Shown: positions 2,569 through 53,920 of the stretch, in pieces | Layout: each line of letters begins with the position of its first letter | How positions within the stretch are numbered: position 1 is the stretch's first letter | Source of the DNA: Parcubacteria group bacterium | GTDB lineage: Bacteria; Patescibacteriota; Minisyncoccia; Moranbacterales; GCA-2747515 | Reading direction: 5' to 3' | DNA length: 64,000 bases | Assembly (NCBI GenBank): GCA_041660065.1 | Contig: JBAZXC010000001.1 | Location: 72,535 to 136,534, forward strand | Made by a program: the position numbers and the translations under genes | Notes under the pieces: model-generated | Told to the model about the DNA's origin: nothing | Databases searched by the model: none | Seen by the model: the letters and a program-made list of their open reading frames with translations, nothing else

Positions 2569-2874
2569 ATGGATTTCTCCCAAATGAATGAAGAGATCAT
2601 TGCAACGGCGCAGGGATATTGTGACACGTATAGTATTGAACCGAGCAAAGAATTTGCCGTACTTAAGCTTTATGAAGAAGTGGGGGAGTTTGCACAGGCG
2701 TTTTTGATCCATGAGCGCATGAGTCGTCCGGAAAAATTCATGGACGAGAAGGATTCGCGGGAACGTATGGCGCAAGAGTTGGCTGATGTTGTCGGCATGT
2801 CACTTTTTGTGGCACATGTGCTGGGCATTGATATGGAGAAAGCGCTCCAAAAGAAATGGACCAACCGGGTTTGA
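2569..2874 (+). CDS. MazG-like nucleotide pyrophosphohydrolase (small all-alpha NTP-PPase)
   Basis: ~100 aa; EExGE-type motif (LYEEVGEFAQA) and downstream acidic metal-binding helix (ELADVV). Confidence 0.6.
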   Translation: MDFSQMNEEIIATAQGYCDTYSIEPSKEFAVLKLYEEVGEFAQAFLIHERMSRPEKFMDEKDSRERMAQELADVVGMSLFVAHVLGIDMEKALQKKWTNRV

Positions 2875-2907: not shown

Positions 2908-3657
2908 ATGGACATCAAGTCGACCACTATTACCAATATATGCTTGATCGCGATCGTCATCTGTGTGGCATATATGATCTTTGCGGGAAAAAATATCACC
3001 GTGGATATGAACCAGTCTTCTCTTGAGCACACGATCTCTGTCGATGGTAAGGCAGAAACATTTGTAAAGCCGGATACGGCAAAAGTGTCATTTGGTGTAA
3101 CGTCAAAAAATATATCAACTGATGTGGCGACAAAATCTGTCAATGAACGGATGAATACACTGGTGGGGGAGTTAGCAAAAAATGGTGTAGAGGAAAAAGA
3201 TATCAAAACGGTCAACTATGAGATCTCTCCGGAATATTCATATAATGACGGTGTACAGAGATTTGAGGGATATCGCGTGTCACAGCGTGTAGAAGTGATC
3301 ATGCGCGATTTGGAGAAGGTTTCCGATGTGTTGGGTGTTGTAAATAGTGCTGATCTCGATAATGTGTCACAACTGACATTCTTTGTGGATGACGATGAAT
3401 CGATCAAAAAGGAATTGCGTGAGCAAGCAATTGCTGATGCTGAAGAAAACGCACAGAAAATTGCAAAGAATCTCGGTGTGCAGATCGAAAGTGTGGTGAG
3501 TTTTTATGACTATAGTAACGATACGCCACCGTCGGAGCCTATGTATGCGATGGAAAAATCCGGTATGGGTGGCAGTGACGTGGCATCTGCGCCGGTTGTG
3601 CCGGAGGGAGAAAATCAATTTGTGTCAAAAATTTCTGTAACGTATAAGATCAAATAG
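2908..3657 (+). CDS. SIMPL/DUF541 family periplasmic protein
   Basis: N-terminal TM/signal anchor; length and sequence pattern of SIMPL (26 kDa periplasmic immunogenic protein) family. Confidence 0.55.
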   Translation: MDIKSTTITNICLIAIVICVAYMIFAGKNITVDMNQSSLEHTISVDGKAETFVKPDTAKVSFGVTSKNISTDVATKSVNERMNTLVGELAKNGVEEKDIKTVNYEISPEYSYNDGVQRFEGYRVSQRVEVIMRDLEKVSDVLGVVNSADLDNVSQLTFFVDDDESIKKELREQAIADAEENAQKIAKNLGVQIESVVSFYDYSNDTPPSEPMYAMEKSGMGGSDVASAPVVPEGENQFVSKISVTYKIK

Positions 3658-3705
3658 TATTTTTGGGTGATAGACAGATCATACGTAAACAAAAAGCCAC
3701 TTTTT

Positions 3706-4884
3706 TTAAGTGGTTTTTTGTTGCAACCGAATTGTATTGACTAGCATCGTGGCGATTGCCGCAAGGAGAAATGTCCATTGCAAACCAACAAATATGGCCA
3801 TGACCATCGCTGTAGCATAAAGGAAAATCCTTCCGATGTTTATAGCCATTTCTTTGATGACGGTAAATTCATCCACATAATGTCCTTGATCGGCTGAGAG
3901 ATCATAGGTGATCGCGTCAAGGGAATTTTGTGAGAGAGCTTTGGTGAGTTTGTGGTAGGTATCTGCAAGAAAAATGTGAAAGCCGGTGATAATGAATATT
4001 TTGACGAGCCATCCGAGTGCATAAAGGATGGAATTGATCTTTAGCATTTTTTTCCTTTTGTGGTGGGTATCGGCGTATCTACCGATGAACATTTCCAATA
4101 GCACTGTAACCCCGATCGTGAGTGCTGAAATCATTCCAATCGACATATAATCGCCATTGAGAAGATTGAAAATAAATATTGGCCAAATGATCGTACCGAC
4201 AGAAGATTCTGCACTATCGGCAACATATGCGATCATCGCAGGGCGATACTTTTTCGCGCAGAGGTTTCTCCATGTTTGCATATATGTCCATGAAAATTTT
4301 TCATGAACATTGGAAAGCGAGAGAAGAGGAATGAGTGACGTGGCATAAACGATTATGCCAACGATAAAGAGTAGTTGATAGGATGCATATGCAAGGATCA
4401 CACCCGCGATCAGTGGTGCAATGATGCCAATGATATGCATAGTTGCCATAAATGTGCTGACCTCACGCATGCGGTTGTTTTGATCGGAGAATGTAGCAAA
4501 CATGGTGTGATACGGCAGCCAGTATAATAAGCGAAATGCAGTGATAAAAAATAAGGCGATGCCGATCGTCTGGTGGATGTTTTGAGGTGTGGTGATGCCG
4601 AGAATGAGAAGAAAAAGGATGTCCGCGATCGTTGCAATATAGAGAGAGCCTTTTAAACTGAATTTCTCAATATATTTTGTGGTAAGTGGCAAAGGAAGCA
4701 GATAGAGAAAAGAGCCAATGAGATAGAATAATAGTACTTTTTGGATATTGTGTCCAAGCATTTCATACAAGAAAATTGGCACAAAGATCGCAAAAAATCC
4801 ATTTGAGAAAAAAACAATGGTGCGGCTAATATAAAGATATGTGAGGTCATGAGAAATTTTTCCGGTAAAATATTTGAAATTCAT
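3706..4884 (-). CDS. MFS-type transporter (12-TM membrane protein)
   Basis: 392 aa, highly hydrophobic throughout, with a two-halves architecture. Confidence 0.5.
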   Translation of the reverse strand: MNFKYFTGKISHDLTYLYISRTIVFFSNGFFAIFVPIFLYEMLGHNIQKVLLFYLIGSFLYLLPLPLTTKYIEKFSLKGSLYIATIADILFLLILGITTPQNIHQTIGIALFFITAFRLLYWLPYHTMFATFSDQNNRMREVSTFMATMHIIGIIAPLIAGVILAYASYQLLFIVGIIVYATSLIPLLSLSNVHEKFSWTYMQTWRNLCAKKYRPAMIAYVADSAESSVGTIIWPIFIFNLLNGDYMSIGMISALTIGVTVLLEMFIGRYADTHHKRKKMLKINSILYALGWLVKIFIITGFHIFLADTYHKLTKALSQNSLDAITYDLSADQGHYVDEFTVIKEMAINIGRIFLYATAMVMAIFVGLQWTFLLAAIATMLVNTIRLQQKTT

Positions 4885-4922
4885 TTTTGTTTTTTTATTG
4901 CGCGTAGTAAATTATATGGATG

Positions 4923-6410
4923 TCACATTCTTTTTTTGCGCTTCAGGAACAGTGCGATATCATGATCTGTAAGTTGTCCCGATATGCGTAGTGTCCCAAA
5001 ATAGATCACACACAGAATAATGCTGGAAATGATGAAAGTAAAAGTGCCTGCAGGGAGAAATATGGAGAAAAAGATCATTAGGATCGCGGCAATGATCGAC
5101 ATGATCCACAGCATGATCGGCATGTGCACGGCAAAGTGTTTTTTGATATAGATGAGTGATCCAATCATAAGGAAAAGTGAGGTAACAACAACGGAAAATG
5201 ATGCACCGATGAGTTCAAATTGTGGGATCAATATAAAGTTTAGCGTAACATTGAGAATAAGTCCCCACAGTGTGAGCCACATAGGGATCTTGACCAATCC
5301 GGCGCCGTTCAAAACAAAGCTAAGCACATAAAAAACCGTGAGAAATCCGGCACCGATCACATAAAGACTCATGGGGTACACCGCCTCAAGGTAGTCTTTG
5401 CCATAAATGAGGAGAATGGTTTGTCTGCTGTAGAGTGCGAGAAGTGTGACAAGCGGAAAAAGAACAAAAAGCATCAGGCGGAGAGATTTATTGATTAGGC
5501 TGGAGGTCTCTGTTTCTTTACGTTCGGCTGTTGTTTTGGAGATTGCCGGTAAAAGGATGATGGTAAGCGCGTAGAAGAGAAAATACGGGATCCGTCCGGC
5601 GGTGAGTGCGGCATTGTAAATACCGGTCAAGTGGTCGCTGTGAAGGAGTGATTTGACGAAGTAGAGATCAATTGTCGAAATGAGTTCATAGAAAAGCAAA
5701 AAGAGAGTTAATGGCCATGCGTAGTTGAGGATTGTCTTGGCAGAAAATGTTTTTGCTGTGCTCATGGGATGATCTTTGATCGCGGGAAAATAGCGATGTG
5801 TGATGATGATGTCGCAAATGATCGCAACGGAAAAAACAAAAAGTGGCGCGACGATATAACCTGAAATCGCACCCTTCACGCCAAAGAAATATGCGAGACC
5901 GATGATAAAAATCACGCGACTGGTTGCGCGCACAGTCTTGAGTATGGATTGCAGACGAAAGAAATGCAATCCGGTGTAAAAATAAAAATAAAAGGATGCT
6001 GCGGCGAAAGCGGGAATGATGAGGGCGGAGAGTTGAAAAAGCGGTGTGAGTGATGAATCGCCAAGGAGATAGGCAATGACCGGTGCGAGGATAAAAAATA
6101 CAACAGTGACACTTGCCATGAGAAGTGCTTGCATTTTCATGCTTTTGCGTTTGATCGGTCGAATCTGTTCCGGATCGCTTTCGATGATCTCGCTTAAATA
6201 TTTTGACATGGCGGTGGGGATGCCATTGCCAATCAAAATCACGATCATAGTGGTGAGTGTGATCACGAGACTGTAGCGACCATAATCATCCGGCTCAAGG
6301 ATGCGTCCAAGTGCGCTGTGGATGACATAACCGGCAGCGTTAAAAATGATTTCCGATATGGTGAGCCAGACGAGTGAACGGGAAAAATTTTTCATAAAAC
6401 AGAATGTCAA
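4923..6410 (-). CDS. polysaccharide biosynthesis protein / oligosaccharide flippase (MOP superfamily, Wzx-like)
   Basis: 495 aa with ~14 predicted TM segments; N-terminal motif pattern of MOP flippases. Confidence 0.6.
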   Translation of the reverse strand: MTFCFMKNFSRSLVWLTISEIIFNAAGYVIHSALGRILEPDDYGRYSLVITLTTMIVILIGNGIPTAMSKYLSEIIESDPEQIRPIKRKSMKMQALLMASVTVVFFILAPVIAYLLGDSSLTPLFQLSALIIPAFAAASFYFYFYTGLHFFRLQSILKTVRATSRVIFIIGLAYFFGVKGAISGYIVAPLFVFSVAIICDIIITHRYFPAIKDHPMSTAKTFSAKTILNYAWPLTLFLLFYELISTIDLYFVKSLLHSDHLTGIYNAALTAGRIPYFLFYALTIILLPAISKTTAERKETETSSLINKSLRLMLFVLFPLVTLLALYSRQTILLIYGKDYLEAVYPMSLYVIGAGFLTVFYVLSFVLNGAGLVKIPMWLTLWGLILNVTLNFILIPQFELIGASFSVVVTSLFLMIGSLIYIKKHFAVHMPIMLWIMSIIAAILMIFFSIFLPAGTFTFIISSIILCVIYFGTLRISGQLTDHDIALFLKRKKRM

Positions 6411-7007
6411 TCAATTACTTTTGTGTAAAACAGTTTCCAAAATTTGTGTGGCAATGACGGAACGATCGCGATCGCCGTCCAGGGACACAAAATGGAAAAG
6501 ATCATTGTATGTGTTGTATAAATTGTTTTTGTCGATAAGGTATGACACGCCTTGCGCAGGCGCAATATTGCGTTGCATGATCTTGTAGGGATCAACAGCG
6601 AGATAAAATGCATGGTCTGGCATGATCAGCATATTTTGAAAAAATGGGATGTATTTTTTACGGGAAAGATATGCGATGTTGACGATCATATCAAAAAAGT
6701 ATCGGTCGGATAAAATATAGTCATACTTTTGCCGAGAAAGTCGTGTGACCAATAAGCGAAAGCGCATCAGATCGATCACGAGTGCGATCTTGCGCATGCA
6801 GATCGCGATCCATGACGCATGTGAGACATCATACGTCTTACCGTCGGACGATCTTTTTTTACCTGCGTTGAGGATATTGGCAACAGAAAAGGTGATCGCA
6901 TGGAAATAAAAAACCTTATGACCGCGATTCTCAAGTTCTTTTTGCAATAGATCGATTTGGGTGGATTTTCCTGATCCGTCAAGGCCGGAAATTGAGATGA
7001 TTTGCAT
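6411..7007 (-). CDS. thymidylate kinase-like (d)NMP kinase
   Basis: P-loop ISISGLDGSGKSTQ and DRY motif (LSDRYFFD) typical of Tmk; 198 aa. Confidence 0.55.
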   Translation of the reverse strand: MQIISISGLDGSGKSTQIDLLQKELENRGHKVFYFHAITFSVANILNAGKKRSSDGKTYDVSHASWIAICMRKIALVIDLMRFRLLVTRLSRQKYDYILSDRYFFDMIVNIAYLSRKKYIPFFQNMLIMPDHAFYLAVDPYKIMQRNIAPAQGVSYLIDKNNLYNTYNDLFHFVSLDGDRDRSVIATQILETVLHKSN

Positions 7008-7192
7008 GAGAAAATGGTAATGATTATGCGGATTTTTCTGTACTCAAGTGTAGCACAAAATAGCATGAAATGGTAGTAATTTTACTGTGTTGATTATTAT
7101 TCTTCAAGCAGGTATTATTATGGTAGGTTTGCAGATTGTTCTTTGGCAAAAAGGCCGTGTTTGTTTTTTTATGCTTTTTTGAGAGGTGATCT

Positions 7193-7300
7193 ATGGAAAG
7201 TGTAGGGTGGGTCGTTCTTTGTGTGGCTGTTGTGATATTCACATTGCGTAAGAGAATTTATGAGAAGGTACAGTATTTGCTGTATAGACTTGGCTTTTGA
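7193..7300 (+). CDS. small hydrophobic peptide (35 aa), hypothetical
   Basis: ATG preceded by GAGAGGTGA RBS; single TM-like segment; followed by a strong terminator. Not in the ORF track (<60 aa). Confidence 0.25.
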   Translation: MESVGWVVLCVAVVIFTLRKRIYEKVQYLLYRLGF

Positions 7301-7312
7301 AAATCTGATGAT

Positions 7313-7347
7313 CGGGAGATCCACATACGGATCTCCCGGAATTTTTT
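7313..7347 (+). terminator. rho-independent terminator
   Basis: CGGGAGATCC-ACATAC-GGATCTCCCG perfect 10-bp stem followed by a T-run. Confidence 0.6.
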
Positions 7348-7352
7348 AAATA

Positions 7353-7916
7353 GTGTATCAAAGATATATGGCAGATGAACGTATAGATATTTGCGATGAG
7401 ACTAATCATCTGACAGGTTTTCAACGGATGAAAAGTGAAGCGCATGAAAACGGTTTATGGCACAGAGTGGCGCATGTGTGGATTTATAATACAAAGGGAG
7501 ATATCCTCATACAATTACGCGCAAAGGAGAAATTGCTGTATCCGAATAGGTGGGATGTATCGGTTGCAGGACATGTGGGTGCGGGGGAAGAACCTCTTGC
7601 ATCGGCACTGCGAGAAGTACAAGAAGAGATCGGACTCACGGTCAAAGAAGATGATCTGCAATTTTTTATGATCAGGAAAGTCGCTATGGTCTATGAAAAT
7701 ATACACAACAATGAATTTTATTACGTGTATTTCTTACCATTTGATGGAGATATTGCACAGGTGAAACTGCAAAAGGAAGAAGTGCAAGAAATTCGATTTG
7801 TCTCTACGCGGTGGATCACAGCAGATCTAAAAAATAATCCCGATAGATATGTGCGGCATGGCAAATACTGGAATGATGCAATAGATGGAATTGAAAGTAT
7901 TTTGCATAAGAAATAA
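7353..7916 (+). CDS. NUDIX hydrolase
   Basis: Nudix box GHVGAGEEPLASALREVQEEIGL. Confidence 0.75.
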   Translation: MYQRYMADERIDICDETNHLTGFQRMKSEAHENGLWHRVAHVWIYNTKGDILIQLRAKEKLLYPNRWDVSVAGHVGAGEEPLASALREVQEEIGLTVKEDDLQFFMIRKVAMVYENIHNNEFYYVYFLPFDGDIAQVKLQKEEVQEIRFVSTRWITADLKNNPDRYVRHGKYWNDAIDGIESILHKK

Positions 7917-7971
7917 ATAATTTTGTGAAAAAATCAATCGTAAAAAGAGATTAAATCATTATCGAATACAC

Positions 7972-8556
7972 ATGGACGAAATTCAAACACGAGATATTAT
8001 CAAAAAAGCACGTGAGATTTTTTATGTGATGGTTGATAATTTTGGATCAGATCCATACGGATTGCTTTCTCATGTGCCAGAAATGGAAAAATGGGCACAT
8101 TTTATGTTACGACGATATCCAAATGCTGATGCAGAAGTAGTGTTATTGGCAGTGTGGTTGCATGATATCGGACATTACCCGGTACCAACAGAAGAGGATC
8201 ACGCAGTGCGTGGAGAAATACGGGCGCGCGATTTTTTTGAAAAAGAAAATTATGCGACAGATCGTATGCACGCAGTATTGCATTGCGTGCGGGCGCATCG
8301 CTGTCGCGATGTTATGCCGGAAACCGTGGAAGCAAAGGTCGTCGCATTTATTGATTCTGCCAGTCACATGACAGATGCAATGTACTTCAATATGATGAAA
8401 GAAGATAAAGAAAAAAATGCACAGTTCAGGGTATACGCAAAAATGGAACGGGACTATCGAGACCTGGGTTTCTTTCCAGAGATGCAAGAGGAATTGAGAG
8501 GTATGCATGATGCGTGGAAGAACTTATTGCAAGAATATGAAAAAATTGACGTGTAG
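7972..8556 (+). CDS. HD-domain phosphohydrolase
   Basis: H..HD motif (WLHDIGHYP) and downstream His/Asp residues. Confidence 0.7.
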   Translation: MDEIQTRDIIKKAREIFYVMVDNFGSDPYGLLSHVPEMEKWAHFMLRRYPNADAEVVLLAVWLHDIGHYPVPTEEDHAVRGEIRARDFFEKENYATDRMHAVLHCVRAHRCRDVMPETVEAKVVAFIDSASHMTDAMYFNMMKEDKEKNAQFRVYAKMERDYRDLGFFPEMQEELRGMHDAWKNLLQEYEKIDV

Positions 8557-8603
8557 GAAATGTGATTGCACAGCATGTGGTATATAAATGTTAATGAAAT
8601 GTT

Positions 8604-9173
8604 ATGAGTAGAAGCACCCTGATCATTGTATCCGGTCTTCCCGGGACGGGAAAAACAACTTTGTCCAAAAGGATCTCTGATCAATTCGTCTTGCCTTTGG
8701 TTAGTATGGATGCAGTCAAAGAAACGATGTGGGATACCATGGGACATAAATTTGATTTTGAATTCAGTGACAAGATCGGTCGAACGGCATTTGAATTGGT
8801 GTTTTATTATATCAATGAAGCTTTGTCTAAGGGCGTCTCTTTGGTGGTCGAGGCACATTTTAGTCCGAAAAGAAATAATGAAAGAATAAACAAATTAAAA
8901 GAAATGTATGATGTCAATCTCTTGCAGATCCATTGTGACTGCGAAACAGAACCTTTGCGAAAAAGATTCAAAGAACGAATGAAAAAGGACAGCTATCATA
9001 AAGGACATAAGCACACCATAGATCTTTATGGGGAAGAGAGAATCTTGCATAGTTTGGGAATAAAAGACAAACGATTGGATATCAATGGCGTTACGTATGA
9101 CCTTGACACTACAAATCCGGAAGCAATCAATTATGAGAAATTATTTGGGTTTATAAAAGAACATATAAAATAG
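8604..9173 (+). CDS. P-loop kinase (AAA_33 / polynucleotide-kinase-like ATP-binding protein)
   Basis: Walker A GLPGTGKTT at the N-terminus; ~190 aa. Confidence 0.55.
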   Translation: MSRSTLIIVSGLPGTGKTTLSKRISDQFVLPLVSMDAVKETMWDTMGHKFDFEFSDKIGRTAFELVFYYINEALSKGVSLVVEAHFSPKRNNERINKLKEMYDVNLLQIHCDCETEPLRKRFKERMKKDSYHKGHKHTIDLYGEERILHSLGIKDKRLDINGVTYDLDTTNPEAINYEKLFGFIKEHIK

Positions 9174-9184
9174 ACAAAATTAGT

Positions 9185-9601
9185 ATGACAAGATTATGCA
9201 GTGCCTGCTTACTTGGTGTGCCGTGTCGCTATAATGGTGCGAGTAAGCCAAATGAAAAAATTTTAGTATTGGCAAAAAATGAAATGCTAATTCCCGTATG
9301 TCCGGAACAACTTGGTGGTTTGTCTACCCCACGCAAACCGGCAGAACGGTGTGGCAAATGTGTTGTTGCACGTGACGGAGAAGATGTGACAGAGCAATTT
9401 ATGCGTGGAGCACAAGAGGTTTTGAAAATCGCAAAACTTTATGATATAAAAAGTGCAATTTTCAAACAATGCAGCCCGTCATGTGGGTGCGGACAGATCT
9501 ATGATGGCAGTTTCACAGGAAGGATCATTAAAGGGGATGGCATTACCACGCAATTATTAAAAGAAAATGGTACAGAAGTTTTAAGCGATGAGGATGTGTG
9601 A
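9185..9601 (+). CDS. DUF523 protein (TudS-like putative Fe-S thiouracil desulfidase family)
   Basis: Conserved Cys pattern CLLGVPCRYNG ... CPE ... CSPSCG typical of DUF523. Confidence 0.55.
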   Translation: MTRLCSACLLGVPCRYNGASKPNEKILVLAKNEMLIPVCPEQLGGLSTPRKPAERCGKCVVARDGEDVTEQFMRGAQEVLKIAKLYDIKSAIFKQCSPSCGCGQIYDGSFTGRIIKGDGITTQLLKENGTEVLSDEDV

Positions 9602-9734
9602 TAACACAAGTATTTTTTGAACGAACCTTTACATCTTTTCATTTTTTTGTTAGACTTGGCACAATAAATTTTTTGCTCTTTAAACATCAATGAAATCGTA
9701 ATTTTAGATTGTAAAAAAATTAGAATCTGGAGGT

Positions 9735-10148
9735 GTGCTTATGGGCTGTCCATTTTGTGATGTAGTCAATATTAGTAAAATTGTGCTTTTCCAGACGGAT
9801 TTTGCAATTGCGATCATGAATCTTTACCCTGTGACACGAGGACATTTGCTCGTAGTGCCGAAGTTGCATGTGAGTTCTCTATCTGAATTGGGATATTCCT
9901 CTTGTTGTGATTTGATCACATCAATACAAAAGGTGACAAATATCGTTAAAATGCATTTAAAACCTGAGGGTGTAAATGTTTTTTTGAACGAAGGGAAAAT
10001 CGCCGGACAAACTCTCGAGCATTTACATGTCCATGTTGTTCCAAGATATATTGATGATAATCTAAGAAATTTTGAGAGAATGAATTCTGAGCGCATCCTA
10101 TTGTCAGAAAATGATAGTGCTAGGCTTAGAGAGATTTTTGGTCAATAA
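9735..10148 (+). CDS. HIT family hydrolase
   Basis: Histidine triad HLHVHVVP; N-terminal CPFC. Confidence 0.75.
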   Translation: MLMGCPFCDVVNISKIVLFQTDFAIAIMNLYPVTRGHLLVVPKLHVSSLSELGYSSCCDLITSIQKVTNIVKMHLKPEGVNVFLNEGKIAGQTLEHLHVHVVPRYIDDNLRNFERMNSERILLSENDSARLREIFGQ

Positions 10149-10304
10149 TCATTTTGCAATTAATATGCAGATGTATCTAGGAGCTCGATCAATATTGCAT
10201 TGGGCTCTTTTTGTAACCAATGTATCCGAGTATAAAATAGTATTTTTTGAAAAATCAGTTATTATATATAGCAAGTTTCATTAATAGTAAATTTTGGATA
10301 AAAT

Positions 10305-10877
10305 ATGATTTTTTTAGAAAAAGGCGAGATTTTGAAAAATAGAGAGTTCTATATTAATGAAATAAAGAATGGCAAGGTTTTTATATATCCTACTGATACG
10401 TTGTTAGGACTTGGGGCTGATGCTACAAATAAGAAAAGTGTGCAGAGGATTTTTTCTATCAAAAATCGCCGGAAAAAACCATTACTTGTTATTGCGCCGT
10501 CATTTCAGTGGATCAAAGATTCCTGTGTTATTTCATCATCCAATCTTTTGATGTTGAAAGAAAAACTTCCTGGGCCATATTCTTTTATTTTGACACTGAA
10601 AAATAATAATGCTATTGATGCGTTGGTAAACGCTGGGAAAGATAGTATAGGGATCAGGATGCCGGACTGTTGGTTTACGGATCTCGTTTGTCAATCAGGT
10701 GTTCCGTTCGTGACAACTTCTGTAAATGTATCCGGACAAGTTTCCATGCTAAAAATAGCTGATATTCCACAGTCTATGGTGGATCAGGTTGATTATGTAG
10801 TTGATGATGAAGCATCATTAAGCGGGGTGGCTAGTACGATCATTGATATAAGAGGAGAGGAAAAAGTGTTGCGCTAA
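10305..10877 (+). CDS. tsaC: L-threonylcarbamoyladenylate synthase (YrdC/TsaC/Sua5 domain)
   Basis: YrdC-domain motifs: YPTDTLLGLGADATNKKSVQRIFSIKNR. Confidence 0.7.
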   Translation: MIFLEKGEILKNREFYINEIKNGKVFIYPTDTLLGLGADATNKKSVQRIFSIKNRRKKPLLVIAPSFQWIKDSCVISSSNLLMLKEKLPGPYSFILTLKNNNAIDALVNAGKDSIGIRMPDCWFTDLVCQSGVPFVTTSVNVSGQVSMLKIADIPQSMVDQVDYVVDDEASLSGVASTIIDIRGEEKVLR

Positions 10878-10975
10878 GTTAGTCCAATATAGTACAAAAA
10901 AATAATATAGAAATGTTAAAAAATTGGAATGCAAAATGTGCTATAATACAAACATAATTTTTTCTTGAAACATCT

Positions 10976-11257
10976 ATGCAGATCAAAGAATTATTGAATC
11001 AAGGGCGTGATATATGGGGTGATCAAAAATTAACACTTTCGCAGGTCATTGTGCGTATGGGCAAAGTTTTTGGTGATCTGTGTCGATGGGAGCGTAATGC
11101 TAGTAAAGATCGGCAAATGCATACGGATGAAGAAATCAAAAAAGAACTTGGCAATATCATCTTTTCAACTATTCGCTGGTGTGACGATCTGGGATACGAT
11201 CCGGAAGAATGTGTGCAGATCGCAATCGATTGTCAGAAGAAATTTCCTAAATTATAA
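10976..11257 (+). CDS. MazG-like pyrophosphohydrolase domain protein
   Basis: ~90 aa all-alpha protein with a MazG-like acidic helix pattern; weak call. Confidence 0.4.
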   Translation: MQIKELLNQGRDIWGDQKLTLSQVIVRMGKVFGDLCRWERNASKDRQMHTDEEIKKELGNIIFSTIRWCDDLGYDPEECVQIAIDCQKKFPKL

Positions 11258-11276
11258 TAGACCATTTAATTTCTAT

Positions 11277-11346
11277 GTCATCCTGAACTTGTTTCAGGAT
11301 CTCGCAATTATATCTTGTATAGATGCTGAAACAAGTTCAGCATGAC
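11277..11346 (+). terminator. long inverted repeat / terminator-like hairpin
   Basis: 24-nt arms GTCATCCTGAACTTGTTTCAGGAT / ATGCTGAAACAAGTTCAGCATGAC are near-perfect reverse complements, 22 nt apart. Confidence 0.4.
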
Positions 11347-11412
11347 AAAATCCTGTTTCAACTATTTCTTGAGTAAAAAGAAAAAATGACATTTATATTA
11401 CCTAACTATTAA

Positions 11413-11877
11413 GTGGTTACTATGAAACATCGTATTCGTGCTGCAGCGATCATTATAGATGAAGAAAAGATCTTACTCATAAAACATGTACATCCCGTGA
11501 CTCAATTTACCTGGTGGGTCCCGCCAGGTGGCGGTGTTGAATTGGAAGACGCATCAATTATTGATTGTGTGAAACGTGAAGTATTTGAAGAAACAGGATT
11601 GCAAGTGGATGTAGAATCAGATCTCAGATTTATACGAGAATTTTTTGATAAGACGTATGATACGCTCAATATAGAAATCTTTTTTGACGCACGCGTCGTC
11701 GGTGGCAATTTATCGATGGAACATATCGCAGGAAATGGCGTTGATGAAGACTTTATCAAGGATGTAAAATGGTGCACGATCGCAGATTTGCAAAACGTCA
11801 TTGTTTATCCCGAAATTCTCAAAGACAATTTTGGCAGAAATGCAAAAAATATTTATCTTGGCAGACAAAGGGGTTAG
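11413..11877 (+). CDS. NUDIX hydrolase
   Basis: Nudix box GGGVELEDASIIDCVKREVFEETGL. Confidence 0.75.
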   Translation: MVTMKHRIRAAAIIIDEEKILLIKHVHPVTQFTWWVPPGGGVELEDASIIDCVKREVFEETGLQVDVESDLRFIREFFDKTYDTLNIEIFFDARVVGGNLSMEHIAGNGVDEDFIKDVKWCTIADLQNVIVYPEILKDNFGRNAKNIYLGRQRG

Positions 11878-16228: not shown

Positions 16229-17728
16229 CTAATACACGATCACGCTCACCGGTTGCATCTTGGCGACGACGTGTGCGATGCCGTTTGCTTCGACGCCTTC
16301 GATGACGCGATTGATGTTTTTGTACCGTGCGGAGTCCTGGTTGACGACGATGGATGATTTGGCGTTATAGAGGCGTACGCCTTTTTCTTCCATTTTGGCA
16401 AAGAGCTCTTCTTTGTTGGTGATGGATTTTTCATTGATATTTTTGCCTTTGCCGGTTCCGTGCGGTGCGGAATAAAAACTTTCTGCATTACGGTCTGTGC
16501 CGACGCATATGTACGCATCAGTGCTCATGGACGAAGGGATAAATACCGGCTCGCCTGTGTCACGGTAGACGGGATGGTGTTGCATTTTGCTCGGACCATA
16601 GGCGCGGGATGTATTGTTGCGGTGTACCCATACGTCTTTGTCAAAGTGGTTTTCACGCGTGATCGAAATGTGAGGGAGATCATAGATGAGATCCATCTGT
16701 GGATCACGGTTGAGCGTTTTTTTGATCGTTTGGGAAATATTGTGCGCAATCACGGCACGGTTTGCCGTGCCAAAGTTTGATGCGGCGGCGCGTGCATTCA
16801 TATAAAGCTCGCCGTCAGGTCCACATGCATCATAGGTGAGCAATGATTGGTCGCCGGACATGTGTCGTGCGACTTTCTTTTGCATCTTTCGGTAGATCTC
16901 TTTTTTGGTCGAGTTGAATGTCATGCGACCGAGTGCGACCATGATCGCTTGTGAGAGATGTTCGCGTTTTTTTGCGGTGTGGGTGTACATGGTGTATTGA
17001 CCCAAGATGCCGGAACCCGTATGGATCATAAAAAGATATTGTCCTTTGGCGATGCCGAATTTTTCTGCGATTGTTGGGTCGATGATGTCGGTCACTTTCA
17101 TGAGATCGAGGAAATGATTGCCGGCGGCGCCGAGAATACCGAGGCGATATTGCGCAAAATGTAAATAGAGGCGGGGAATCGCGTCAAAAATATCTTGTGC
17201 CGTCATTTCTCTATCAAAGAAATTCCCGCCACTTTGTGTATTGGACAATTCATTTCGTGTGGTGATGCCAAAGTGATCGATCGCAACCGATGTGCCCTTG
17301 CGGCAGATGTCCACGATCGTATCAAATGGCGCATATGTGCCAACGAGTTTTTTGGTAGGGACTGTCTCAACGAGCTGTTCAAATAGCATCCGTATCTCTT
17401 CCGGTGATATATTGTCTTCGGTAAGAGATGTCTTGAGCAGGCGCATGCCACAGTTTGGGTCGGAGTCATTGACTTGTGGGAGGATATATTTATCCGATAC
17501 GATCGTTGTGCCGGAAGCGTTCTTGCGCCCGGGCTTGGAGCACACATCAGGCAGTGCGACTGTGTAACGGAAGAATATGTCTTTATTTGATGCGATGTTT
17601 TCGACTTGAATAAATGTTTGTTCTTCCGGCAAAATATCTTCGCTCATGAAAAATTGCGCCGGAACGGACATTTTTTCTGTCTTGAATTCGTGTAAATGTT
17701 CGGATTTTTTAGTGCAATGTGTTGACAT
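16229..17728 (-). CDS. rtcB: RtcB-family RNA ligase
   Basis: RtcB-like motifs PDVCSKPG, NCGMRLL, HTGSGILGQ, APHGTGKG; ~500 aa. Confidence 0.7.
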   Translation of the reverse strand: MSTHCTKKSEHLHEFKTEKMSVPAQFFMSEDILPEEQTFIQVENIASNKDIFFRYTVALPDVCSKPGRKNASGTTIVSDKYILPQVNDSDPNCGMRLLKTSLTEDNISPEEIRMLFEQLVETVPTKKLVGTYAPFDTIVDICRKGTSVAIDHFGITTRNELSNTQSGGNFFDREMTAQDIFDAIPRLYLHFAQYRLGILGAAGNHFLDLMKVTDIIDPTIAEKFGIAKGQYLFMIHTGSGILGQYTMYTHTAKKREHLSQAIMVALGRMTFNSTKKEIYRKMQKKVARHMSGDQSLLTYDACGPDGELYMNARAAASNFGTANRAVIAHNISQTIKKTLNRDPQMDLIYDLPHISITRENHFDKDVWVHRNNTSRAYGPSKMQHHPVYRDTGEPVFIPSSMSTDAYICVGTDRNAESFYSAPHGTGKGKNINEKSITNKEELFAKMEEKGVRLYNAKSSIVVNQDSARYKNINRVIEGVEANGIAHVVAKMQPVSVIVY

Positions 17729-36742: not shown

Positions 36743-37096
36743 ATGGAAGACTGTATTTTTTGTAAAATTGCACATAAGGATATTCCCACAAAATTTTTGT
36801 ATGAGTCGGAGCGTGTTGTGGCATTTCGGGATACTCATCCGATTGCGCCGGTGCATGTTTTGGTCATACCAAAAAGGCATATTCCTTCAATGAATGATGT
36901 GACCAAGGATAATGCGGAATTATTGGGGGAATTATTGCTTGTCGTACAAAGTGTTGCAAAAGATCTGGATATTGCACAAAGTGGATATAAAACACTTATC
37001 CGCACAGGGAAGCACGGTGGACAAGAAGTGCCCCATATCCATGTGCATCTCATTGGCGGTGCGCGACTATCGGAAAATATTCGTCCGATTGCGTAA
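36743..37096 (+). CDS. HIT family protein (HinT-like)
   Basis: CIFCKI N-terminus and HIHVHLIGG histidine triad. Confidence 0.8.
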   Translation: MEDCIFCKIAHKDIPTKFLYESERVVAFRDTHPIAPVHVLVIPKRHIPSMNDVTKDNAELLGELLLVVQSVAKDLDIAQSGYKTLIRTGKHGGQEVPHIHVHLIGGARLSENIRPIA

Positions 37097-52110: not shown

Positions 52111-52794
52111 ATGCTGTGCCCCACAGACACATGGATCAAGGGATTGGCTTGTGCGGTGGCAGTGCGGCATCCGGTATTTTTCCCCGAAGTGAATTTTGGC
52201 GGGGATAATAAAATGGAACAGCTGATCGAAAAAGTCGATCTGGCAACGCTTGACGGTGTGATCAAAGATGAAAACCCGGATCTGTGGCGCAGACATCGAT
52301 TTGTCGCGGTGAAATTTATCGTCAATCGCGCAGTGACACATGAGCTCGTCCGGCACCGCCCGTGTTCGTTCTTGCAGGAAAGCCAGCGGTACTGTAATTA
52401 TGGTCTGGACCGTTTTGATAAGCGGGTGACATTCATCAAGCCGTTATTTTTCCCCGAGGATTCAGAGGAATATCAGGATTGGCTGGAGGCTGTAGAATTC
52501 ACAGCAAAAAAATATTTTAAGCTTCTCAAAACGTCAACACCGCAGGCGGCACGTACCGTATTCGCAAACAGTTGCAAGACGGAGATCATCGTTTTTACCA
52601 ACATCGAACAATGGAATCACATCCTGCATCTTCGCACAAGTTCCGCAGCAGAGCCGTCCATGCGCGAGGTTATGATCCCATTGCAAAAGGCAATGCAGGA
52701 GATGTTCCCGCGAGACTCATTTGATAAGCGGATTCCCGAGGCATATGCTCAGTTTCCATGGGAGTGGGATGCATTTTGTCTGGAATATCCGTGA
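52111..52794 (+). CDS. thyX: flavin-dependent thymidylate synthase ThyX-like (N-terminally short)
   Basis: ThyX signature RHR-X7-S (VRHRPCSFLQESQRY) and downstream LHLR...E motif; start may be the internal MEQL (52213). Confidence 0.55.
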   Translation: MLCPTDTWIKGLACAVAVRHPVFFPEVNFGGDNKMEQLIEKVDLATLDGVIKDENPDLWRRHRFVAVKFIVNRAVTHELVRHRPCSFLQESQRYCNYGLDRFDKRVTFIKPLFFPEDSEEYQDWLEAVEFTAKKYFKLLKTSTPQAARTVFANSCKTEIIVFTNIEQWNHILHLRTSSAAEPSMREVMIPLQKAMQEMFPRDSFDKRIPEAYAQFPWEWDAFCLEYP

Positions 52795-52913: not shown

Positions 52914-53398
52914 ATGTTAAAAATTGCGTGTAAAAATAATTTTGACAAAATAGTTGATGTGCCAGCGGATAAATTCGTCTTTCGTCCCAGTGCGTACGGT
53001 GTGATCGTTCAAGATGATCGTGTGCTTATGTTGCGCAATAGAAGTAATGGAAAATTGTGGTTTCCTGGTGGCGGTGTGGATATTGGTGAAAAGATCGATA
53101 ATGGATTGTACAGAGAAATGCAAGATGAGACGGGGTTGCAGGTCGAGATCAATAATATGGTTCTTTTTAAAGAGAATTTTTTTACTATCAACCATTAGAT
53201 GAGGCATATCATGCGTTCCTATTCTTTTTTGCATGTACTGTGACGGGTGGCACATTGCATCATGATGAGCTTGTAGATGATCGAGAGTCCACAAAACCTC
53301 GATGGATTGATCGCACAACGCTTAAAAAAGAGGATATAAGCGATTTACAAGATGATCTGTACCATCTCATTACTCATTTTGAGGAATATATTTTTTAA
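52914..53398 (+). pseudogene. NUDIX hydrolase with frameshift (N-part 52914..53198, C-part frame 2 from ~53201..53398)
   Basis: N-part carries the Nudix box (GGGVDIGEKIDNGLYREMQDETGL) and stops at TAG 53196; the NUDIX C-terminal segment (EAYHAFLFFFACTVTGG...) continues in another frame. Shift is at or just after a T7 homopolymer (53177-53183). Confidence 0.5.
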
Positions 53399-53590: not shown

Positions 53591-53920
53591 ATGAATTTCA
53601 GTGAATATCAAAGTGAATCACGCAAAACAGCGCTGTATCCTGATGTGGGGAAGAATTTCGTCTATCCGACGCTTGGGTTGGCGGGTGAGGCGGGGGAAGT
53701 GGCGGACAAGCTCAAAAAGACGATCCGTGATGATGGCGGTGTTTTGACAGCAGAAAAAAAACAGGAAGTAGGCAAGGAATTGGGCGATGTGCTTTGGTAC
53801 GTGGCACAGGTTGCGTCGGAGCTTGGACTGTCGCTTGATGAAGTCGCACAGGCAAATTTGGAGAAATTATTTAGTCGTAAAGAGCGCGGGACATTGACCG
53901 GGAGCGGAGACAATCGATAG
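53591..53920 (+). CDS. MazG-like nucleotide pyrophosphohydrolase
   Basis: AGEAGEVAD ... ELGDVLWY motifs. Confidence 0.7.
   Translation: MNFSEYQSESRKTALYPDVGKNFVYPTLGLAGEAGEVADKLKKTIRDDGGVLTAEKKQEVGKELGDVLWYVAQVASELGLSLDEVAQANLEKLFSRKERGTLTGSGDNR

Follow-up and report, generated by a model that had tools for sequence, protein, structure and literature searches.

A run of nucleotide-handling genes in a Parcubacteria group genome: probable accretion of small housekeeping genes around a modest core

Introduction

Do nine neighbouring genes that look like nucleotide-handling enzymes form a pathway, or have they come together for other reasons? The question is raised by the window analysed here, a stretch of 64,000 nucleotides (nt) from a Parcubacteria group bacterium (GTDB order Moranbacterales; assembly GCA_041660065.1, contig JBAZXC010000001.1, positions 72,535 to 136,534 of the forward strand), in which an array of nine open reading frames (ORFs) lies at 6411-11877. 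An earlier reading of the sequence (the original prediction) proposed a dedicated system for importing, sanitising and re-phosphorylating nucleotides or, alternatively, an RNA end-healing function for an HD phosphohydrolase and a P-loop kinase together with the RNA ligase RtcB. A dedicated pathway, if true, would reveal how ultra-small bacteria with little biosynthesis of their own sanitise and recycle the nucleotides that they scavenge, a matter central to their dependence on a host or community. The evidence points to ordinary, independent house-cleaning genes gathered by local rearrangement, and we think it likely that small housekeeping genes, each acting independently, have accreted in this lineage at a rearrangement-prone site, around a modest core. 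Every gene of the array comes from a known superfamily, the clustering is not widely conserved, and the array itself teaches little that is new.

Gene content of the array

The genes were delimited by ORF listing and Pfam profile search, with the same coordinates as in the original prediction. Eight of the nine score above the Pfam gathering score (GA), so that eight of the nine families proposed hold; the ninth, here called ORF93, is a remote relative of the MazG superfamily only.

6411-7007, minus strand: Tmk-like kinase, PF02223 (Thymidylate_kin) at 34.5 bits, GA 27
7353 or 7368-7916, plus strand: NUDIX1, PF00293 at 66.2 bits, GA 21.1
7972-8556, plus strand: HD phosphohydrolase, PF01966 at 43.7 bits, GA 22
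8604-9173, plus strand: P-loop kinase, AAA_33 at 42 bits, also AAA_18
9185-9601, plus strand: TudS (DUF523, 2-thiour_desulf), PF04463 at 150.4 bits, GA 34.7
9735 or 9741-10148, plus strand: HIT protein, PF01230 at 75.9 bits, GA 21.5
10305-10877, plus strand: TsaC/YrdC, PF01300 (Sua5_yciO_yrdC) at 147 bits and TIGR00057 at 142 bits
10976-11257, plus strand: ORF93, no Pfam match, remote MazG superfamily
11413-11877, plus strand: NUDIX2, PF00293 at 61.4 bits, GA 21.1

The window has about 65 genes, 14 of them of nucleotide type. For a run of nine, random gene order gives p ~3e-6, but this null is naive, in that it disregards the tendency of small accessory genes to group, and the gene category was picked post hoc. 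The clustering is real, yet function is not established by clustering. No transporter gene is found among the plus-strand members of the array.

Conservation and rearrangement of the locus

Through the closest TudS homologues (72-79% identity) three syntenic loci were found, L021, L022/L023 and L024/L025, in which both flanks are 64-94% identical in amino-acid sequence to those of the window. Between the Tmk-like gene and Ddl, L021 and L022/L023 hold only a small ORF, TudS, ORF93 and a NUDIX gene. This core is tightly packed in L021 and L022, with gaps of 37 and 11-17 base pairs (bp), and continues straight into a different Ddl and an HhH-GPD glycosylase gene with gaps of 4-37 bp; co-direction there mixes unrelated functions. 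NUDIX2 orthologues, 66-67% identical, directly follow ORF93 in L021 and L022, and a 67-bp 3' remnant is left in L024. NUDIX1, HD and HIT are absent from the syntenic relatives. The conserved core thus consists of the minus-strand Tmk-like gene, the small ORF with its terminator, and TudS-ORF93-NUDIX2, in three close syntenic relatives only, and NUDIX1, HD, the kinase, HIT and TsaC appear to be lineage-specific additions to this smaller ancestral core. The smaller features of the array on which the comparison draws are as follows.

7193-7300, plus strand: small ORF of 35 amino acids (aa), between the Tmk-like gene and NUDIX1
7312-7349, plus strand: terminator-like hairpin and T-run, after the small ORF
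10893-10940, plus strand: putative TudS 3' remnant, from alignment to L024
10939-10947, plus strand: extended -10 element of ORF93, read from the sequence
11276-11347, no strand: 72-nt palindromic element, between ORF93 and NUDIX2

The closest relative, L024, carries the order TudS, ORF93 5' fragment, kinase, TudS 3' fragment, ORF93, NUDIX2 3' remnant, Tmk 5' fragment (minus strand), Nuc_deoxyrib_tr, a 94-aa ORF and Ddl (minus strand). The kinase is flanked by a 251-bp diverged direct repeat composed of the TudS 3' end and the ORF93 5' end (7308-7552 and 8135-8384), and the Nuc_deoxyrib_tr module by a 37-bp direct repeat of 95% identity (8757-8793 and 9790-9826). In addition, the Tmk 5' end is duplicated together with its upstream region (8811-8972 and 6559-6717). 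These partial-gene repeats look like scars of duplication or of recombination-mediated gene shuffling. The window appears to hold a similar scar. Its positions 10893-11251 align to L024 8206-8565, and in L024 the TudS 3' end has a second copy at 8135-8251, which matches window 9489-9602; the approximately 45 bp ahead of ORF93 are thus a probable decayed TudS 3' end left by a junction duplication. The smaller gene content in L021 and L022, together with the partial-gene scars in L024 and in the window, indicates that the site, chiefly the TudS/ORF93 junction, has been struck repeatedly by insertions and duplications. An insertion hot spot whose partial-gene scars display the shuffling of small genes in these genomes is one by-product of the analysis.

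Outside the syntenic clade, orthologues stand in unrelated contexts. In three Moraniibacteriota contigs (L016, L017 and L020) the kinase orthologue comes after hrcA-grpE-dnaK, and in one further contig it lies beside an alpha/beta hydrolase gene; identities to the kinase of the window are 67-74%. No other gene of the array was found within 5-8 kb of these orthologues, and HD is absent from all kinase-orthologue loci. In the nearest GTDB relative with TsaC (L002, 67% identity), TsaC adjoins RtcB (79% identity) in convergent orientation at 2994-5108, with no other array genes at that locus; in the window 5 kb, including Ddl and a Mur ligase gene, separate the two. TudS of another lineage is located between SecDF and PheST. 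Among 79 metagenome loci with ORF93 (L026-L104), TudS is nearby (within 6 kb) in none and NUDIX2 in two, and no conserved gene neighbour of ORF93 was found across them; the commonest immediate neighbour occurs in only 4 of 59 loci. A 92-aa ORF near TudS in L106 was examined as a second TudS-ORF93 linkage and is not an ORF93 homologue. The dedicated import, sanitation and re-phosphorylation system is not supported. It was proposed with conservation of the neighbourhood in relatives as its check, and what was found is largely the opposite, a core kept in three close loci and orthologues dispersed elsewhere.

Based on these comparisons, we propose that the array was assembled stepwise at a site between two conserved blocks, PMT_2 to Tmk-like on the left and Ddl to RtcB and a glycosyltransferase on the right. 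The ancestral order would have been the Tmk-like gene on the minus strand, then on the plus strand the 35-aa ORF with its terminator, TudS, ORF93 and NUDIX2. In the lineage of the window, a NUDIX1-HD-kinase block would have been inserted ahead of TudS and a HIT-TsaC block into the TudS/ORF93 junction, and a dispersed palindromic element would have landed between ORF93 and NUDIX2. The shared theme most likely reflects that much of the stock of small movable genes in these reduced genomes consists of nucleotide-handling genes, and that such genes accumulate where insertions are tolerated; a multi-step pathway need not be invoked.

Transcriptional layout and the palindromic repeat

The Tmk-like gene had been counted as a member of the array. 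It is instead the first gene of a minus-strand unit, Tmk-like/flippase/MFS, apart from the plus-strand array, and its adjacency to the flippase gene is kept in L021, L022 and L024. Between this unit and NUDIX1 lies the small ORF, which was absent from the original prediction. Its product, MESVGWVVLCVAVVIFTLRKRIYEKVQYLLYRLGF, has a predicted hydrophobic N-terminal helix, and the ORF is preceded by a strong Shine-Dalgarno-like sequence, GAGAGGTGA. L021 and L022/L023 have homologues with the conserved C-terminus LRKxIYEKxQYLLYxLG[FY] at the equivalent position, and L024 retains a 3' remnant. The terminator-like hairpin behind it has an 11-pair stem with 7 G-C pairs, is followed by AATTTTTTAA and ends about 20 nt upstream of the NUDIX1 start codon; L021, L022 and L024 have an equivalent hairpin behind the small ORF. 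In L021 and L022 the unit of small ORF and hairpin stands ahead of TudS; in L024 it is truncated. This layout resembles a leader or arrest-peptide attenuator, and its position directly ahead of the first gene of the array makes it a by-product of some value.

Several genes had been said to end within a few bases of the next start. This holds for the kinase-to-TudS pair, separated by 11 bp, whereas the remaining plus-strand gaps measure 47-156 bp and have a GC content of 21-30%. An extended -10 element of ORF93, TGCTATAAT, was read from the sequence, and L021 as well as the two junction copies of L024 have TGnTAyAAT at the matching place. The AT-rich spacers, the conserved extended -10 element of ORF93 and the terminator ahead of NUDIX1 make one regulated operon unlikely, in agreement with the caution already voiced that the array is not one operon. 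Transcription probably proceeds from several promoters with read-through.

The hairpin noticed earlier between ORF93 and NUDIX2, at about 11277-11346, was found again as the 72-nt palindromic element. Its two 27-nt arms, 11276-11302 and 11321-11347, are 93% complementary (-40.9 kcal/mol, z=-6.7), and each arm is itself an 8-bp stem-loop. Exact copies of the 20-nt arm sequence CCTGAACTTGTTTCAGGATC were found in 24 unrelated IMG/VR contigs, where they stand as inverted pairs with differing loops or as tandem direct copies 94 nt apart; sites of the palindromic repeat include L125 2817-3024 and L126 2286-2363. The element is missing from the relatives, whose ORF93-NUDIX gap is 11-17 bp. The arm matches in 24 contigs and the absence from relatives identify it as an apparent inserted copy of a widely dispersed palindromic repeat. 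An intrinsic terminator was considered for this hairpin and rejected, as it has no T-tail. No structured RNA or riboswitch was found in the window by Rfam at the gathering threshold, and a permissive Rfam scan of 6.9-12 kb for such elements in the spacers gave spurious hairpin-type matches only.

Predicted functions of the individual proteins

For several of the proteins a role in house-cleaning or in the nucleotide pool is credible, as had been proposed, and each protein most likely works alone. TudS aligns over its full length to 6z92 (E=1.7e-30) and retains all catalytic residues listed in PMC10611767. It is identical to 6z92 at the [4Fe-4S] ligands Cys10, Cys43 and Cys104, at the catalytic Glu45, at Ser101 and Ser103, at the phosphate-binding Arg17 and Tyr18, and at Tyr110. 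The characterised enzyme prefers 4-thio-UMP and acts less well on 4-thio-UTP, which is connected with the recycling of tRNA breakdown products (PMC10611767). The conserved active site suggests that the window protein would likewise take sulfur off 4-thio-UMP or 4-thio-UTP from tRNA turnover or scavenging.

Both NUDIX proteins have an intact Nudix box. That of NUDIX1 reads GX5EX7REVQEEIGL, and its best solved relatives are YfcD 2fkb (E=1e-8) and DR0079, to which it is closer than to Idi; it stays below all NCBIfam equivalog cut-offs, Idi included. NUDIX2 (box core REVFEETGL) is MutT-like, with the MutT/NUDIX proteins 3fk9 and 3id9 as best Protein Data Bank (PDB) matches, and has no equivalog-level assignment. 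The HD protein carries its dyad within LHDIGH and is weakly YedJ-like, YedJ 3gw7 (E=0.036) being its sole PDB sequence match. The HIT protein has the motif HLHVHVVP and, as best PDB matches, 6af2, the Ap4A phosphorylases 3wo5 and 3ano, and Fhit, which places it nearer to the Ap4A phosphorylase/Fhit branch than to Hint1. Directly after the histidyl-tRNA synthetase gene, at 36743-37096, a second HIT paralogue is encoded that scores higher against Pfam HIT (99.7 bits); the HIT protein of the array is therefore an apparent extra, Fhit/Ap4A-phosphorylase-like paralogue. By family membership, NUDIX1, NUDIX2, HD, the Fhit-like HIT and perhaps ORF93 may hydrolyse non-canonical or surplus nucleotides and dinucleotides.

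All nine genes had been taken for nucleotide-phosphate or modified-nucleotide enzymes, and TsaC departs from this description. The product of 10305-10877 passes the equivalog TIGR00057 (142 bits against a cut-off of 123.2), an equivalog-level call as TsaC/YrdC L-threonylcarbamoyladenylate synthase; it would make the threonylcarbamoyl-AMP for tRNA t6A and is not an enzyme of the nucleotide pool. The gene is a universal housekeeping gene.

The product of 6411-7007 is best described as a divergent thymidylate-kinase-like P-loop kinase. It matches the PHROG thymidylate kinase over its full length (E=6e-12) and has the P-loop GLDGSGKST and a DRY motif within SDRYFFD. An arginine-rich LID is not clear, and TIGR00041 gives 32.5 bits, far under the cut-off of 83.25, with the P-loop region alone aligned. 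For the P-loop kinase at 8604-9173, the AlphaFold2 model has a mean predicted local distance difference test score (pLDDT) of 93 and superposes on 2rhm with a template modelling score (TM) of 0.88; the next matches are mixed kinases with TM ~0.55-0.65. Invariant in the family are the P-loop, D36, E40, R121, R125 and H132, and nearly invariant are K39, G134 and H135. These residues suggest a hydroxyl kinase and do not indicate its substrate. The 2RHM-type kinase would phosphorylate some hydroxyl substrate.

The ORF93 family

ORF93 is the most interesting by-product of the analysis. It has 92-93 aa and 923 homologues, which form 209 clusters at 50% identity; the best 120 are 72-89% identical and come from Falkow-, Magasanik- and Moranbacteria and WS5. 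No Pfam match was found at E<=0.01, the best being PF12643 at 16.3 bits against a GA of 27, and sub-threshold PF12643 matches occur in 17 of 62 family members. The AlphaFold2 model has four helices (pLDDT 83). Its top Foldseek matches, RS21-C6 2oig and MazG 3cra, are non-significant (TM 0.55, E ~2), and the family profile matches E. coli MazG at E=1.8e-4 and 5ie9 at E=5e-3. The name MazG-like is therefore acceptable at the superfamily level only.

Conserved throughout the family are IW (W14), G33-D34, R40, E57-x-G59-N60, S64, R67 and Q87. Alignment to MazG revealed no canonical EExxE...ExxD tetrad in the family; the first motif reads G-D-i-a-R and the second E-L-G-N, with Asn replacing Asp. 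Since these conserved positions are not those of the canonical metal-binding tetrad, it is not assured that ORF93 is an active pyrophosphatase. A metal or Fe-S protein was considered, as four Cys are conserved in close homologues, and was rejected since three of the four are not kept family-wide. Ten longer homologues have long N- or C-terminal extensions, in which no Pfam domain was found. ORF93 thus appears to belong to an unannotated, strongly conserved small-protein family of candidate phyla with a putative MazG-like fold, which merits biochemistry.

Weighing of the alternative explanations

The alternative closest to the original prediction is that the array, or its core TudS-ORF93-NUDIX2, is an integrated nucleotide sanitation and salvage module held together by selection. 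In such a module, NUDIX, ORF93 and MazG-like enzymes would turn modified nucleoside triphosphates (NTPs) into monophosphates, repair of thiolated UMP would fall to TudS and removal of by-products to HD and HIT, and the Tmk-like and 2RHM-type kinases would re-phosphorylate the cleaned products. Several observations favour it and weigh against accretion as we propose it. The run length is far above the random-order expectation (p ~3e-6), and the core is retained in L021, L022/L023 and, in decayed form, L024. Where relatives carry other genes at the site, these too are nucleotide-related (a kinase, a gene of the nucleoside 2-deoxyribosyltransferase family (Nuc_deoxyrib_tr) and an HhH-GPD glycosylase gene), and this thematic similarity could reflect selection for co-location. 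A second group, ThyX-NUDIX-MazG, lies at 52-54 kb. Furthermore, the known TudS substrates (PMC10611767) would make an NTP pyrophosphatase acting upstream chemically sensible.

Nevertheless, we regard such a module as unlikely. There is no conservation beyond the close syntenic relatives, where inheritance explains the retained order equally well; the relatives are a handful and the syntenic ones all close, so that inheritance and selection are inseparable among them. TsaC is unrelated to pool sanitation, ORF93 departs from the canonical MazG acidic tetrad, and the kinase has no assigned substrate. The spacers are separate and promoter-like and one of them has received a repeat element, the Tmk-like gene belongs to a different transcription unit, and the core of the relatives is co-directional with Ddl and the DNA glycosylase gene.

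A narrower proposal is that TudS, ORF93 and NUDIX2 form a trio for the detoxification of thiolated or otherwise modified nucleotides, in which ORF93, with its rewired active site (GD..R / ELGN / S..R / Q), would be a new enzyme or a specificity factor that feeds or partners TudS. We consider this improbable.

RNA end-healing is a still weaker candidate. HD and the P-loop kinase, possibly with HIT and RtcB, would form a split end-healing and sealing system modelled on that of Runella. HD precedes the kinase as the corresponding domains do in HD-Pnk, HIT and the RNA ligase RtcB are in the vicinity, and the kinase has a weak match to the PHROG polynucleotide kinase (E=1.2e-7). Similar to CthPnk, for which a general-base Asp, a D-x-x-R motif and lid arginines are described (PMC3902929), the kinase has a P-loop, an Asp 19 residues past the P-loop Lys and lid arginines. 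However, D36-x-x-K39 takes the place of the Pnk D-x-x-R, and the kinase model superposes on CthPnk with a TM of 0.55-0.58, no better than on adenylate, sugar or PSTK kinases, so that specific structural support is missing. The adjacency also fails: neither the HD gene nor RtcB is near the kinase orthologue in any of five independent contexts (L016, L017, L018/19, L020 and L024/25). RtcB of the window lies on the opposite strand, 7 kb off, past Ddl, the Mur ligase and hydrolase genes, and keeps its position in relatives that have neither HD nor the kinase. Moreover, RtcB joins 3'-phosphate or 2',3'-cyclic-phosphate ends to 5'-OH ends, and a 5'-kinase is not needed for this chemistry. We therefore hold the end-healing role, one of the two originally suggested, to be very improbable.

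Finally, a horizontally acquired island of phage auxiliary nucleotide genes or of anti-phage nucleotide-depletion defence, which would fit the dip in GC to 0.356 at 10-12 kb, the PHROG counterparts of all families, the resemblance of HIT to the ThsC HIT model and of the NUDIX genes to PDC-S07 in PADLOC, and the dispersed repeat inside the array that also occurs in IMG/VR contigs, is hardly credible, because no integrase, transposase, phage structural or other mobility gene is present, the PHROG and PADLOC matches are generic and at domain level with the partner genes absent, the GC content at third codon positions (0.32-0.40) is not aberrant and falls in the range covered by other genes on the plus strand (0.35 for FtsZ, for instance), and the orthologues are chromosomal in related metagenome-assembled genomes with housekeeping neighbours.

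Other features of the window

On its left the array is flanked by PMT_2, DUF4349, MazG-like, SIMPL, MFS, a Polysacc_synt/MurJ-like flippase and the Tmk-like gene, and on its right by Ddl, a Mur ligase, an alpha/beta hydrolase, RtcB (16229-17728) and a glycosyltransferase. The remainder of the window holds glycosyltransferases, aminoacyl-tRNA synthetases, FtsA/FtsZ and similar genes. The additional MazG-like gene and the second nucleotide-related cluster of the original prediction are both present.

2569-2874, plus strand: MazG-like NTP pyrophosphohydrolase, PF12643 at 29.3 bits (GA 27) and PF03819 at 25.2 bits
52111-53920, plus strand: second group of ThyX, frameshifted NUDIX and MazG genes

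Orthologues of the gene at 2569, 73-93% identical, occupy the equivalent place in L021, L022 and L024. In the second group, ThyX (52111-52794) carries the RHRxxSxxxxSxRY motif and the MazG gene (53591-53920) scores 47.7 bits. The NUDIX gene between them, at 52914-53398, is genuinely frameshifted, the reading frame changing from 52914-53198 to 53171-53398 at a T7 homopolymer near 53176. Possible explanations are a mistake in sequencing or assembly, decay to a pseudogene and slippage-prone expression. Apart from the real paralogues, this frameshifted NUDIX and the second HIT, no remnants of array genes were found elsewhere in the window, and no tRNA gene that might serve as an integration target was found across its 64 kb.

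The GC skew, (G-C)/(G+C), is positive in all 2-kb bins of the window, from +0.08 to +0.25, regardless of gene strand, a strikingly strong and uniform strand bias with no switch within 1-64000. Another locus retrieved, L003 from a Gracilibacteria metagenome-assembled genome, has almost no long ORFs under genetic code 11. Gracilibacteria use an alternative code in which UGA is read as an amino acid, and this fits the scarcity of ORFs.

Comparison with known systems

Compared with the TudS of PDB 6Z92 and 6Z96 (Fuchs et al. 2023, PMC10611767), the window protein stands alone and is not a DUF1722 fusion of the RudS type. The available sections of that paper describe no genomic partner of TudS, and the link to ORF93 and NUDIX2 seen here is lineage-specific. 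The RNA repair cluster of Runella slithyformis comprises HD-Pnk, a ligase, Tpt1 and MTase-HIT (Munir and Shuman 2017, as cited in PMC6097658). As in that cluster, genes for a HIT protein, an HD phosphoesterase and a P-loop kinase stand in the vicinity of an RNA ligase gene in the window. In contrast to Runella, HD and the kinase are separate genes whose adjacency is not conserved, the ligase is RtcB, with a different end chemistry and a non-adjacent position, and the kinase belongs structurally to the 2RHM family.

ORF93, with four predicted helices, has the helix 3-4 signature 'KELGd/N-hydrophobic ... LG-D-E' in common with the all-alpha, MazG-type NTP pyrophosphohydrolases (MazG 3CRA, YpjD 2GTA, 5IE9 and RS21-C6/DCTPP1 2OIG), which are 'house-cleaning' enzymes. 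It differs from them in the first helix, where EExxE is changed to G-D-x-x-R, and in ExxD, where Asp is changed to Asn. The P-loop kinase matches the Caur_3907 putative kinase (PDB 2RHM, a structural genomics entry) over its whole length, with E=7.6e-23 and TM 0.88; as 2RHM has no assigned function, no substrate follows from the match.

In the reduced genomes of candidate phyla, mixed 'housekeeping' strings are found, in which short co-directional unrelated genes stand between conserved blocks and vary in content among relatives. Compared with these strings, the array of the window is of unusually high thematic purity, and its partial-gene scars record its assembly.

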